IMG/VR virus record: IMGVR_UViG_3300003369_000003
Coordinates: 1-32,788 of that record
Direction: 5' to 3' (one strand)
DNA from: a virus
Taxonomy: Duplodnaviria; Caudoviricetes
DNA: 32,788 bases
Shown here: piece by piece, positions 9,715 to 31,326 of the stretch
Layout: every line of letters starts with the position of its first letter
How positions within the stretch are numbered: the first letter of the stretch is position 1
Translations under genes and position numbers: made by a program
Notes under the pieces: generated by a model
Databases searched by the model: none
Seen by the model: only the letters and a program-made list of their open reading frames with translations
What the model was told of the DNA's origin: nothing

Positions 9715-9786
9715 TGCGGGGTGGCGCAGAGGCAGCGCGCTTGGTTCATGCCCAAGAGGTCGAGATTTCAAAATTCTCTCCCGCTA
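9715..9786 (+). tRNA. tRNA-Met (CAT), initiator-like, with non-canonical features
   Basis: Acceptor TGCGGGG/TCCCGCT (1:72 mismatch), D arm GCGC..GCGC, anticodon arm CTTGG-TTCATGC-CCAAG, T arm GAGAT-TTCAAAA-TTCTC (53:61 mismatch). No encoded CCA. Confidence 0.75.
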
Positions 9787-9838
9787 CAAATTAACATTTT
9801 AAAATAAATTATTATTTTGATATTAGGAATATAAAGAG

Positions 9839-9867: not shown

Positions 9868-10257
9868 ATGCATGAAATAATATCTATTTGTAGAGGAGGA
9901 GGATATATGTATTGTAAAACATCACCTCTACATCCAAAATCAAACTCAAATGGACTATATCCATTACATCGCGTAATGCTTGAAAACAAATTAGGTAGAT
10001 ATTTATTATCAACAGAAGTAGCTCATCACATAGATGGAAATAAATTTAATAATACTCTCGAAAATTTAATGGTGTTGTCTAATAGGGAACATGCAATACT
10101 CCATTTAAGAAAAGATGAAATGATTAATTCAATCTGTCCGTGTTGTGGTAAGGAGTTTCAAGAAAAACCATGTTACTATAAACTAAGACAAAAAAGGAAT
10201 AAATCAGGGAAAGTATTTTGTTCAAGATCTTGTGGCGTAAAACAAGACCCCTCATAA
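9868..10257 (+). CDS. HNH homing endonuclease with C-terminal Zn-binding domain
   Basis: HRVMLE..LGR.L...EVAHHIDGNKFNNTLENL....H (HNH_3-like), followed by CPCC..FCSRSC. Confidence 0.9.
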   Translation: MHEIISICRGGGYMYCKTSPLHPKSNSNGLYPLHRVMLENKLGRYLLSTEVAHHIDGNKFNNTLENLMVLSNREHAILHLRKDEMINSICPCCGKEFQEKPCYYKLRQKRNKSGKVFCSRSCGVKQDPS

Positions 10258-10291
10258 CCCATTAGTCAGAGGTTCGATTTCTTTCCCGCTA
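10251..10291 (+). pseudogene. 3' half of an initiator tRNA-Met gene (remnant)
   Basis: CTCATAA-CCC..GTC-AGAGG-TTCGATT..TCCCGCTA gives the anticodon loop, T arm and acceptor 3' strand, with no 5' half. Confidence 0.75.
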
Positions 10292-10339: not shown

Positions 10340-10372
10340 CCGTTTAGCTTTCGCTAAGCGGTTTCGGCTTTT
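10340..10372 (+). terminator. probable terminator of the tRNA/HNH unit
   Basis: CCGTTTAGC-TTTC-GCTAAGCGG hairpin followed by T-rich sequence. Confidence 0.5.
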
Positions 10373-10379
10373 ATATTTC

Positions 10380-11460
10380 ATTCCCACTTTTGGCTGCATT
10401 TCACTACCAAGTTTGGCGGGAAATGTCAAGTTTTTACGGGTACAAACTATCATTTTTGTAACAAATTTAATCTATTTTTGTGACAGCAGTGTCGCATATA
10501 TAGTACATTTTGGCGACAATTTTGTATTGTATACAGAACAAAACTAAGGCAATGGGATAATTCTTTCCACTAAGAGGGGTACGCAAGGATAATTTTGTCG
10601 ATTAGTAAAAACCCGCACAGCAAGTGGAAATCTTTTCAACTGGGTATGTAAAATTATACTTTTGGATATAATACCAATAAGTATAACCGCAAAAAGTCAA
10701 CTGACAGGTTGACAAATAGCTCGTGTAAGTAAATTTATAAGTTGACATTTTGCATTATTATTATTGCAGATGAAAACAGGGCAAATTCAATGATAATGTT
10801 CAATATTTATCATTGTTCAATGGCAATGAATCTTTGTTTTCACTGAACGATATGATCCGATAACACCCGATATGATTCGATAATGAGCTATAAATGCTGC
10901 ATTTCGGAAATCAAACAAATGGCACTAAATAGCATTTGCTGCCGAATTATAGAGCAACTCCACAACAGAACAATAAAGAACAAGGACAGTAGGCTACAAA
11001 TTGACACCGACTCATTCGTAATTCGCGTTACGCAAAAGGTGTAACATATTCGCAATTTTGCGGTTAAACCTCAGCTTTTTCGTTGCAATTCGTATCTGTG
11101 AAATAAGGTTAAAGCTGATAATTAGGATATAAATGGCAGCTTATGTTAAGGAAATTAACTTCCCGAACATGCTAATAAGATCATTACTAATAAAACTATT
11201 ACTAATACTCATATTGTATGCTATAGTGTACATAAACTATACTTTTTGTACAATATATCAAACATTATGCACAACTAACATTATGTCGGCAATTACCTTT
11301 TGCGTCAAGATAAACCCTAAGAATAGCCACTTATCGTGCCATGAAAGGTAATGGTTTGCTTTTGTGCGGTTAACTATACTAAGAGTGTGGTTATATGAAT
11401 TAATTTAAACTGCAAACTTTAAATAATACCCATAAGTGCGGTTTATCCCATATCTGGCAT
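10380..11460. other. non-coding array of heterogeneous palindromes and short direct repeats
   Basis: No credible gene. More than 15 different dyads or tandem motifs are packed nearly end to end (see findings). Confidence 0.6.
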
Positions 11461-11484: not shown

Positions 11485-11511
11485 AAAAAGGCAGCCACGA
11501 TTGACTGCCTT
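11485..11511 (-). terminator. intrinsic terminator ending the leftward operon and the sRNA
   Basis: AAGGCAG..CTGCCTT stem, with an A5 run on its left (U-tract on the minus strand). Confidence 0.75.
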
Positions 11512-11553
11512 CCAACTTAAATTAAACCATGAAAAATGAAACTAATTGTTTTG
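11485..11553 (-). ncRNA. putative ~70-nt small RNA
   Basis: Minus-strand promoter (TTTG 11590-11587, N20, TACATTTG 11566-11559) and terminator hairpin 11488-11511 with a U5 tail. Confidence 0.55.
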
Positions 11554-26211: not shown

Positions 26212-26240
26212 AATAATTTAATTTAACTTGGTTTATTTAG

Positions 26241-26441
26241 TGGAGCGAGTAGGAATCGAACCTACACGATATATAGTTTGTGTTAGTTTGCACCCTATTC
26301 GGGGATACTGGTTATGATTTTCACAAACCTTAAAGGATGGTTTTGCGTAACGACTATTTATCAAACTTGTGTACCGCAAACTTATTGCCCCATCCTATCT
26401 ATGCCCATAACAATAGCGTCTACCAATTCCGCCATCGCTCC
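26241..26441 (-). ncRNA. 201-nt tRNA-like RNA (Leu-type D arm) with ~150 nt between the D and T arms
   Basis: Perfect acceptor GGAGCGA/TCGCTCC+A, D arm TGGCGGAATTGGTAGACGC, perfect T arm GTAGG-TTCGATT-CCTAC. No canonical anticodon loop. Confidence 0.75.
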
Positions 26442-28593: not shown

Positions 28594-28836
28594 TTACATT
28601 ACTCGGTAGGGGCTTATTATTGCCTTGATAAAGTCGTACCAATTATAGTTGTTCATATCAAATGCGGTCTTAGCATCCATTGCGAGATACAGCCGCCATA
28701 TTTCCGATAGATCTTCCGGCGCAAAGCTTGTTTCAAATACCAGATCATTTATAAAGTCCTTAGAGCTTTCATGGGTAGTCATTTTGTTGCTCAGTTGGTC
28801 AATCAGATAATCGTAATCTGCTGCTGTTGCTTTCAT
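28594..28836 (-). CDS. hypothetical protein
   Basis: 80-aa ORF. Confidence 0.6.
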   Translation of the reverse strand: MKATAADYDYLIDQLSNKMTTHESSKDFINDLVFETSFAPEDLSEIWRLYLAMDAKTAFDMNNYNWYDFIKAIISPYRVM

Positions 28837-29008
28837 TTCAGTATTTATTAAAGTTCGTTGATTTTATTTAGTTCCATGATTTTGGTTTGTAGTCTTAAAA
28901 CCGCTTTCCGGCGGGTAAAGTCATTCTTTTGAGGGTATATTCTCATCTCCCTTTTTATTGCGTGCATATCATCGTATAATTTGTTTAGTTGCTTTCATTG
29001 TAGTATTT
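28828..29008. repeat. ~180-bp direct repeat, copy 1 (frameshifted copy of a 49-aa ORF)
   Basis: Nearly identical to 30836-31015. An extra base gives MKATKQIIR*. Confidence 0.9.
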
Positions 29009-29009
29009 T

Positions 29010-29294
29010 TTAAAAATTTAGTATAGGTAAGGATTTTCCCACCTCAGTATTTGCAAACGGCCTATATTCAGGTATTGGTAAGCCTTTACGTGTATAGGTT
29101 AGGTAATTATAAAGCCTTATTTTTGCGCTATACCTTGTATCAATATAACAGACTTTTGTTTGCTGTATGGCTCGGATATTAGGCTCTCTGGTCGGCTCAT
29201 AGGTTTGTAGGGAGTGCAATGATGGCTCTATATTAGTTTCTTGGATATTGCCAGTCTTTTGGCAAATTATCGCATATTTATACGGTCTTTCCAT
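29010..29294 (-). CDS. hypothetical protein
   Basis: 94-aa ORF. Confidence 0.55.
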   Translation of the reverse strand: MERPYKYAIICQKTGNIQETNIEPSLHSLQTYEPTREPNIRAIQQTKVCYIDTRYSAKIRLYNYLTYTRKGLPIPEYRPFANTEVGKSLPILNF

Positions 29295-29458
29295 GTCTGT
29301 ATTTATTAAAATTAAATTTTTGTACTCGTTCGGGTCGTTCGGGTTATAAAGTCATTCGACCTCATTTGCCGGTTGGGTCTAATCAGGTTTAATTAGTTGG
29401 ATTTAGTTTAATTTAGTTTCTGTTGGAAATAGTTTCCTGTGGAAAATGGTTTTAGTTG

Positions 29459-29665
29459 TTAGCTATTAATAAAATAAGTTGAGATAATAGGATAGTGATT
29501 TGTTTCATTATCGGTGAAGCTATCCACTATTTTACCCACCAATTTGCGGGTATTTCTTAACTCGAATAGGTTTGTATATGGATAACTATGCGGGTTTTCA
29601 ATTCGCACGCATGCGTCTTGGCTTCCTATAATTTCAAAAAAGACTTCTTTTGTAACTGCTTTCAT
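29459..29665 (-). CDS. hypothetical protein
   Basis: 68-aa ORF. Confidence 0.6.
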   Translation of the reverse strand: MKAVTKEVFFEIIGSQDACVRIENPHSYPYTNLFELRNTRKLVGKIVDSFTDNETNHYPIISTYFINS

Positions 29666-29985: not shown

Positions 29986-30057
29986 TTTGATTAGTTTTAC
30001 TTTGTTTAAGGCAGTTTCCTGCCTTGCTCACAATTTAAGGAGTTGCAACCCTTAAAA

Positions 30058-30336
30058 CTAAATTAGCTGTCTTGCCATTAAATCAAATTTCTCACAAAAA
30101 CAGAAATATTCTTTGCCGTTTGCACTTATCTCTTGATATAGGTTATTCTCTTCAAATACCTTTAGTCTCATTTCTTTGTTGTGCAAGTTGCTATTTAGGT
30201 GCTGCATACCCATTATTACATTTACCATGTTATATACCACACTAAACGGATTTAGGTATGTAGCTTTGTCTTTGGTAAGCACATTAGTAACTGTTGTAAT
30301 CTTTTCGATTGTTGTTTGTGTTTCAATTGTTTTCAT
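30058..30336 (-). CDS. hypothetical protein
   Basis: 92-aa ORF. Confidence 0.6.
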   Translation of the reverse strand: MKTIETQTTIEKITTVTNVLTKDKATYLNPFSVVYNMVNVIMGMQHLNSNLHNKEMRLKVFEENNLYQEISANGKEYFCFCEKFDLMARQLI

Positions 30337-30466: not shown

Positions 30467-30844
30467 TTATTCGGATAGTTCACCCGCTTCAATAAGTCGC
30501 ATAAGTTCATTTACTGTTATGGCTTCCACTTCTAATATGTGACCGTCTAAATCTTTTTTAGACAAATGTGCAACCTTACGACCTCTAAACTCAGTAAAAG
30601 AGACAGTAGCCATATACCTATCGTTTCCGTCGATATAATAGCATAAATTCATACCGTCGTACATTCCCACATTTGTAACAGTTTCGAGATCGAAATGTGA
30701 TAGTTCTCCTGCATCCAGTTTGCGATCATATACTAATAACCCGTACTTTGTTTCGTCTATCTCATAGCGTAAAAATCCATTTCTTGGAAAGCCCTCTGAT
30801 GCTGGGCGCATAAGTAACCGATACCAATATTCGGGTGCTTTCAT
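30467..30844 (-). CDS. DarA C-terminal-like (defence against restriction A) domain protein
   Basis: YWYRLLMRPASEGFP..G......YG.LVYDRKL...EL..FDL matches the DarA_C pattern as recalled. Confidence 0.55.
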   Translation of the reverse strand: MKAPEYWYRLLMRPASEGFPRNGFLRYEIDETKYGLLVYDRKLDAGELSHFDLETVTNVGMYDGMNLCYYIDGNDRYMATVSFTEFRGRKVAHLSKKDLDGHILEVEAITVNELMRLIEAGELSE

Positions 30845-30855
30845 TTCAGTATTTA

Positions 30856-31005
30856 TTAAAGTTCGTTGATTTTATTTAGTTCCATGATTTTGGTTTGTAG
30901 TCTTAAAACCGCTTTCCGGCGGGCAAAGTCATTCTTTTGAGGGTATATTCTCATCTCCCTTTTTATTGCGTGCATATCATCGTATAATTTGTTTATTGCT
31001 TTCAT
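30856..31005 (-). CDS. 49-aa protein (intact copy inside the 180-bp repeat)
   Basis: MKAINKLYDDMHAIKREMRIYPQKNDFARRKAVLRLQTKIMELNKINEL. Confidence 0.6.
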   Translation of the reverse strand: MKAINKLYDDMHAIKREMRIYPQKNDFARRKAVLRLQTKIMELNKINEL

Positions 31006-31326
31006 GGTAGTATTTATTAATTTTAAAGTTTGTTAACTCGTTCGACCCCTTTACTCGTTCGACCTGTTTGGCCGGTTGGGTCTAGTCCGGTTTATTTTAG
31101 TTGGATTTGATTTAATTAGTTTCCAATGGAAATAATTTCCTGTGGAAAACGGTTTAAGATTGGGCTGGATTATATTGGGTTTTTTATAATCCTCTTTTTT
31201 ATATACTCCTCCCAATTAAATTTGATTCGGGTGCTGCTATCGGGGCCAAATTGAGCTTTACAAATATTACAAATACGGTCTTCGCTAAATTCGGTTATAT
31301 CTCCGCCACCGCAAATAGGGCAGTTT

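Follow-up and report, generated by a model that had tools for sequence, protein, structure and literature searches.

The antitoxin AbiEi of S. agalactiae represses its own operon through the inverted repeats IR1 and IR2, a long inverted repeat that lies over the AbiEi-AbiEii promoter, and its C-terminal domain suffices for antitoxicity (PMC3985639). AbiEi induces auto-phosphorylation of the toxin, and the DNA-binding residues are exposed in the complex (10.64898/2026.01.19.700257). The same source ranks AbiE as the fourth most abundant defence system, describes its activation by phage infection as unknown, and reports no defence by the S. agalactiae system against 32 coliphages. The available part of PMC13064643 gives no escape mutants for AbiE. 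AbiEi is also known to bind away from its own promoter, at the oriT of the ICE that encodes it (PMC11062541). Phage PhiTE carries pseudo-ToxI, which reproduces part of a host toxin-antitoxin locus in non-coding form and is directed against abortive infection; it is an expressed RNA antitoxin made of one repeated unit and counters one system (PMC3475682). The Spo0A boxes of phages phi29 and Nf are binding sites for a host protein, a global regulator, and act in cis on phage promoters and origins (PMC2731898). The T7 protein Gp4.5, proposed to act on Lon, silences the DUF1814 toxin system SanaTA by sustaining the antitoxin (cited in PMC3985639 and 10.64898/2026.01.19.700257). No description of phage-borne copies of toxin-antitoxin operators was found in the open-licence literature.

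In this work, a gene-free block at 10380..11460 of a 32.8-kb virus record was compared with host promoters; the window is this whole analysed stretch. We consider it somewhat probable, judging from sequence comparison, that the block is a modular library of operators without genes, which acts in trans as a decoy and keeps AbiE and similar systems silent during infection. The matched host sites share position and gene context with the S. agalactiae abiE operator, but they differ in sequence and phylum, and the candidate sites described here lie on phage DNA without the operon. In its working the block would be most like pseudo-ToxI of PhiTE, by analogy; unlike pseudo-ToxI, it is DNA, combines distinct operators of many systems and would exert its effect via the regulatory loop. 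In contrast to the Spo0A boxes, its candidate sites are those of patchy defence autoregulators and seem to stand away from phage promoters, and, unlike the case of Gp4.5, no protein is encoded.

The plus strand of the window carries tail and lysis genes, and the minus strand carries replication and recombination genes (DnaB, exonucleases, resolvase, integrase-like). The block is situated between the 3' ends of these convergent arms and is preceded by a tRNA-Met and an HNH gene. A sequence-only reading had described it as gene-free, and this was borne out, as just short ORFs overlap it and the longest of them (72 aa, 11133-11351) has no Pfam or PHROG match. No abiEi-abiEii genes were found behind the sites among the block ORFs, and the ATG at 11351 opens a frame of just 16 codons. 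Neither a tRNA nor, at the gathering threshold, an Rfam family was detected in 10380..11460. There is no tandem repeat family beyond short two-copy repeats, and the segments differ from one another. The same reading placed the block between convergent terminators. On the one side, the terminator scan gave a terminator-like hairpin at 11486..11513 (minus strand) that closes the leftward early-gene arm, whereas on the other a hairpin (about 10344-10365) and the T-rich tract after it (together 10344..10378, plus strand), which likely terminate the rightward arm, were recognized by sequence inspection and are absent from the scan's list. By blastn against 50,697 annotated phages the block gave a single 36-bp match at chance level, and no relatives were found in IMG/VR via the resolvase gene. 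Five TAnnTTTG boxes are left in the block, and this consensus is presumably the Bacteroidota-type promoter box. Together with the site matches, these boxes suggest that the phage host belongs to the Bacteroidota.

All 13 dyads listed in the sequence-only reading were recovered at the positions stated there, and the 24-mer at 10520 is symmetric at 20 of 24 positions. Their density was compared with that in 300 dinucleotide shuffles of the block. With arms of at least 6 and gaps of at most 20 there is a modest excess (16 dyads vs 8.7, a count of 16 being reached by 4 of the 300 shuffles), but the difference is not significant with arms of at least 5 (34 vs 30.0; reached by 74/300) or at least 7 (4 vs 2.4; reached by 67/300). 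Dyad density alone is therefore weak evidence, and what rises above chance is the likeness of individual segments to operator regions of hosts. The dyads at 10520, 10624, 10696, 10751, 11017, 11145 and 11227 could not be firmly assigned to a host gene and may be fortuitous or represent further sites.

The first identification came from the 10490 dyad (see below). Further host matches were discovered by BLAST of the block against 301 Bacteroidales genomes, with two candidates scored per genome, and they piled up at few positions. As a guard against circularity, promoters were then collected by gene and not by DNA. For AbiE, 110 AbiEii loci were taken, from which 9 without an upstream ORF and 14 with doubtful starts or short upstream DNA were dropped, and 87 were used. 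Compared with 100 shuffled blocks, eight of these promoters did better against the block than against at least 99 (null mean 1.6, maximum 5): four at the two DUF6088 sites, one at 10421 and one at 11088, while the remaining two (L271 and L285) are long gapped AT-rich alignments and doubtful. Among the ATPase promoters, 13 of 23 beat all 60 shuffles (null 0.3), with clades mapping to 10654 and 11172; the 13 include three discovery loci and two earlier BLAST hits. Unrelated promoters matched the block in 1 of 90 cases (null 1.3). The Fic promoters as a set were not significant (3/87, null mean 1.5), nor were those of AbiEi_3, of which one in 10 aligned, weakly. Because the other intergenic DNA of the window, used as a control, scored 11/110 (null 2.4), mostly through gapped AT-rich or -7 box alignments, the gapped alignment test has to be regarded as lenient. 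In the whole-window BLAST, every match at E<0.01 falls inside the block, and with a cutoff of 31.5 bits six block sites are found besides the DUF6088 pair, vs 0.55 in shuffles. Piecewise BLAST of 10685-10860, 11005-11175 and 11210-11390 (151 genomes each) gave mostly matches inside ORFs and two useful leads.

By sequence likeness, eight segments of the block correspond to palindromic sites that directly precede Bacteroidota genes, namely those of four AbiE subfamilies (one of them with two sites), of an AbiEi-like/Fic fusion and of two clades of putative winged-helix ATPases. Six of the eight are graded firm, and two (10796 and 10555) are probable, being based on one host each. The earlier proposal of a library of captured binding sites is in this way supported, and the host genes can now be named as AbiE toxin-antitoxin operons, an AbiEi-like/Fic fusion and winged-helix ATPases. 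The titration of host regulators that was proposed with it is compatible with these observations. These segments cover 358 of 1081 bp (33%), or 548 of 1081 bp when weak sites are included. The -7 promoter box is absent from 8 of 10 block copies.

The DUF6088 family is represented by a firm pair on the plus strand. The first member, at 10457..10485, is a 29-bp operator-like dyad of the TGT(C/A)ACA-N15-TGTGACA type, as in AbiEi-AbiEii operons, and has kept its -7 box. Dyads of this type stand 13 and 19 nt before DUF6088 genes in L169 and L190, and three loci chosen by their toxin gene (L267, L284, L288) have alignments here that score above at least 99 of 100 shuffles. The second, TGTCGCA-N15-TGCGACA at 10490..10518, has lost the -7 box and is aligned by L270, which beats 100 of 100 shuffles. 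At 10555..10604, on the minus strand, two half-sites occur as upstream of a gene in which an AbiEi-like N-terminus is fused to Fic. This probable assignment comes from a discovery locus (L197/L710) with a 17-bp exact match and both half-sites in order (1/100 shuffles); a homolog with a Fic domain (L711) has a promoter whose match to the block is not significant (23/100 shuffles). The site at 10654..10697 (plus strand, firm, -7 box kept) corresponds to that upstream of clade-1 ATPase_2 genes, which encode predicted AAA+ proteins with a winged helix. Seven loci (L683-L685, L687-L689, L692) align there at 0-2/100 shuffles, L683 and L688 being discovery loci. A four-box site, TGTTCA/TGTTCA/TGAA/TGAAC, as upstream of AbiEi_2 genes, is found at 10796..10848 (plus strand) and graded probable. 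Its discovery locus L209/L714 (0/100 shuffles) has an AbiEi_2 gene 13 nt downstream, and four other homologs have similar boxes by eye with no significant alignment; the AbiEi_2 protein was assigned by Pfam alone, with no PADLOC match at 1e-10.

At 11088..11133 (plus strand) lies the firm two-box site of a 273-aa AbiEi subfamily (AbiEi_4; PADLOC PDLC02267), without its -7 box. L261, L266 and L278 are colinear with it (1, 2 and 2/100 shuffles), and L261 is also a discovery locus. A site with a 15-bp period, as upstream of clade-2 ATPase_2 genes, follows at 11172..11215 (plus strand); it is firm as a host match and has lost the -7 box. There, L698-L701 and L708 beat 100/100 shuffles, of which L708, L700 and L701 were earlier BLAST hits. 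The last firm segment is a 62-bp nested dyad of a 266-aa AbiEi subfamily (PADLOC assignment AbiEi) at 11292..11353 (plus strand), closed by an ATG that takes the place of the host start codon but is followed by no gene. Loci with this operator were collected from metagenomes, the left part of the dyad serving as the query. In eight of them, the ATG of the 266-aa AbiEi stands exactly 33 nt after the motif, the same distance as in the window. The window has kept a 9-bp right arm and the ATG, the inner right half is degenerate, and under a host matrix for the right 36 nt the forward window copy was outside the top five. A 6-nt gap is present in 44 of 78 loci, the window itself (L532) being left out.

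Six further matches on the plus strand are weak. A likely operator of a 240-aa DUF6088-like AbiEi subfamily lies at 10421..10453 (L322 at 1/100 and L329 at 15/100 shuffles), and one of a 205-aa subfamily (PADLOC AbiEi) at 10873..10919 (L356 and L359, in both orientations, at 2 and 3/100). A third ATPase clade may be represented at 10724..10751, where L696 reaches 0/100 over a gapped alignment and L703 70/100. Possible Fic-gene sites were noted at 10849..10883 (L739, 1/100 shuffles) and, by eye, at 11049..11070, which is like the upstream regions of L808 and L787, neither of them significant. Finally, 11354..11389 is a possible AbiEi_3 site (L830, 4/200 shuffles).

The symmetric version of the 10490 dyad matches about 630 GTDB stretches, mostly Bacteroidota among the 80 loci listed. 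A DUF6088 protein is encoded in 72 of 120 sampled GTDB loci, in 69 of which its start lies within -120..+300 nt of the site, most often at a distance of 11-20 nt; 31 of 80 loci carry the site without a DUF6088 trace. The pairing of AbiEi with AbiEii is evident from PADLOC, which gives AbiEi (DUF6088) and a neighbouring AbiEii in L048, a two-gene layout also seen in L044, and the promoter set was itself anchored on AbiEii hits. At host DUF6088 sites the -7 box lies inside the gene-proximal arm in 28 of 29 cases, and the host sites are inverted repeats directly upstream of abiEi that overlap the promoter, as in an AbiE operator. Across the host operators (L253-L362, L683-L709), the arms differ sharply between close homologs and the spacing is kept. 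The model of the ATPase (pLDDT 86) matches SSO1545, PAB2304 and Orc1/Cdc6, which suggests a DNA-binding winged helix, and no PADLOC match was obtained for the two ATPases that were scanned.

Orphan sites are widespread in viral DNA. When the spacer of the 10490 dyad was left free, 25 of 38 IMG/VR loci had the same 29-bp length as the copy in the window; counted as distinct sequences, 13 of 22 did. The TGTCACA variant is present in about 360 stretches of IMG/VR, and when 13 spacer lengths were allowed, 29 bp accounted for 60 of 121 matches and 28-30 bp for 113 of 121. A second class, at 28 bp, makes up 41 of the 121. An antitoxin homolog was present in 5 of 120 IMG/VR loci, and 34 of 100 distinct sites fall inside ORFs. 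Near-consensus sites therefore occur without their genes and independently of position, as expected for operator titration. A group of phages (L002, L005, L019, L025, L031 and L036) has the 29-bp DUF6088 site within a terminase-like frame of 395 aa that is intact. Some non-coding single phage sites may be promoters, because in 16 of 44 a -7 box is combined with an ORF that starts at most 40 nt away. Most phage loci hold one site, and extra sites numbered 44 vs 30.6 (maximum 44) in 90 loci. Two similar phage arrays (L412 and L420) share the DUF6088 and Fic-fusion classes, and L420 also has a 240-aa-type site. For the 266-aa operator, no gene trace was found in 23 of 28 loci passing a register filter, many of them near-duplicates; the filter is imperfect and missed the true host loci L504, L538, L545 and L559, so that the count of 5 with the gene is too low. 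The gene-less loci viewed include phage-type contexts beside terminase or lysin-like genes. The clade-1 ATPase site gave no viral matches in IMG/VR with two exact patterns, and the clade-2 pattern gave 16 in viral contigs, mostly low-complexity repeats. In L503, bacterial-type genes flank a gene-free stretch where AbiE-type operators of the same site classes are clustered, and L511 and L552 are similar; arrays of this kind may also be maintained by hosts or by other mobile elements.

Turnover of the modules is visible in related contigs, which stem from four soil runs on three samples of one study and were collected at an 80% likeness threshold at which joints can be artefacts. They cover the block at mostly 80-95% identity, none of them spans it, and three of the four runs also cover flanking genes. 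The gain and loss of modules anticipated for relatives was observed, since these contigs skip segments of about 60-150 bp and one has an insertion at 11170 whose dyad arms and 10-nt spacing are those of the DUF6577 AbiEi operator in L358. Substitutions towards host bases were found at 10512 (G>T, host arm), 11119 (T>C) and 11338. Several positions differ in 11354..11389, among which 11383 and 11387 change towards the host sequence.

We hypothesize that the decoy would work through the negative feedback of each host operon. The segments match host sites in arms and spacing, minus the genes and mostly minus the -7 box. Following the AbiEi literature, the host sites would be autoregulatory operators bound by the protein encoded just downstream. 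We infer that the same proteins bind the phage copies, and that the many copies of replicated phage DNA would exceed the one host operator in number and draw the repressor away from it. The operon would then be de-repressed and more antitoxin made. DNA-bound AbiEi should still neutralise the toxin, because the C-terminal domain carries this activity and the DNA-binding surfaces stay exposed in the complex; titration should thus raise the antitoxin supply without disabling the antitoxin, and the effect would be silencing and not activation. The weakest step concerns the single-gene Fic and ATPase types, for which a high protein level would have to be the inactive state. NmFic, inactive at high concentration (PMC6408439), offers a precedent by analogy. 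In such a scheme, about 30-60 bp would replace an antidote gene of 600-1000 bp, and modules would be swapped as hosts change systems.

The bound proteins could also act in cis, as a sensor or roadblock that alters phage transcription or replication and reads the host's systems. Spo0A is read in this manner by phi29 (PMC2731898), AbiEi can occupy an oriT (PMC11062541), TAnnTTTG boxes are left in the block, and the 16 promoter-like single sites of other phages would fit. Nevertheless, the block separates two convergent 3' ends and has no gene that it could control, most of its copies lack the -7 box, and elsewhere the site is inside ORFs in a third of cases, so a role in cis appears unlikely. 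Titration of the opposite sign, in which viral DNA sequesters AbiEi and activates the toxin, has been put forward as speculation (10.64898/2026.01.19.700257), and the phage might gain from translational arrest, dormancy or competitor exclusion. De-repression of a single-gene Fic or ATPase would raise the possible toxin itself, and a phage-borne tRNA-Met adjoins the block. We hold activation to be quite unlikely, given that DNA-bound AbiEi should still neutralise and that orphan sites in some 360 viral stretches fit poorly with the triggering of abortive infection. Another alternative is recruitment, in which host proteins bound to the phage DNA might cover it or label it, perhaps as 'self', or keep toxin-antitoxin complexes in place on it. 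The position independence of the sites, including those inside ORFs, the single copy as the usual state, which suits tagging, and the predicted Orc1/Cdc6-like fold of the ATPase all agree with it. We know of no AbiE mechanism, however, that tells DNA apart by the presence of an operator, and we rate recruitment as very unlikely.

It is distinctly improbable that the block is a neutral relic, a bacterial 'graveyard' of operators from lost toxin-antitoxin genes that the phage acquired. The gene-free cluster of L503 and the GTDB loci without a DUF6088 trace speak for it, but the copies on the phage are trimmed and tightly spaced, related contigs retain them while modules turn over, and the site recurs inside intact phage ORFs. 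Extremely improbable is a single structured RNA, decayed gene or replication origin with chance dyads. The z-scores of single-strand folding (-1.9 and -2.4), the turn of the GC skew at the block and the small dyad excess could be taken in its favour, yet the skew tracks gene direction, there is no Rfam match and the segments map to separate host promoters, by which the RNA or degenerate-gene alternative raised earlier is largely refuted.

The decoy reading would have wider consequences. It is conceivable, if somewhat short of probable, that Bacteroidota phages widely counter toxin-antitoxin defence by DNA alone, through an updatable library of host operators that hijacks each negative feedback, that orphan sites point to further anti-phage systems encoded by one gene each (winged-helix ATPases, AbiEi-like/Fic fusions), and that the fast divergence of host operators is the host side of an arms race. 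Phages keep AbiE operators at exact host spacing, which suggests that the operator-antitoxin interaction matters to them, and the open question of AbiE activation becomes testable with oligonucleotides of 30-60 bp. If the decoy is real, it would be a counter-defence free of protein and RNA that gene-based searches miss, and the arrays would list the host genes that threaten a phage, including families outside PADLOC.

Some minor features were observed elsewhere in the window. An intact tRNA-Met (9715-9787) precedes the HNH gene, directly after which lies a tRNA-Met-like 3' half (10245-10290). The tRNA/HNH unit is suggested to be an insertion splitting a tRNA gene, because in one related contig 9648 is followed by a tRNA-like 5' half and then by 10251. 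On the minus strand, 26238-26440 contains tRNA-like 5' and 3' halves with about 130 extra bases between them, missed by ARAGORN and Rfam, and a Twister-P3 ribozyme occurs in the early region at 29993-30059. Among the small early genes there are duplicated intergenic blocks, near-identical and related, at 28830-29015 / 30840-31025 and 29295-29460 / ~31030-31200.
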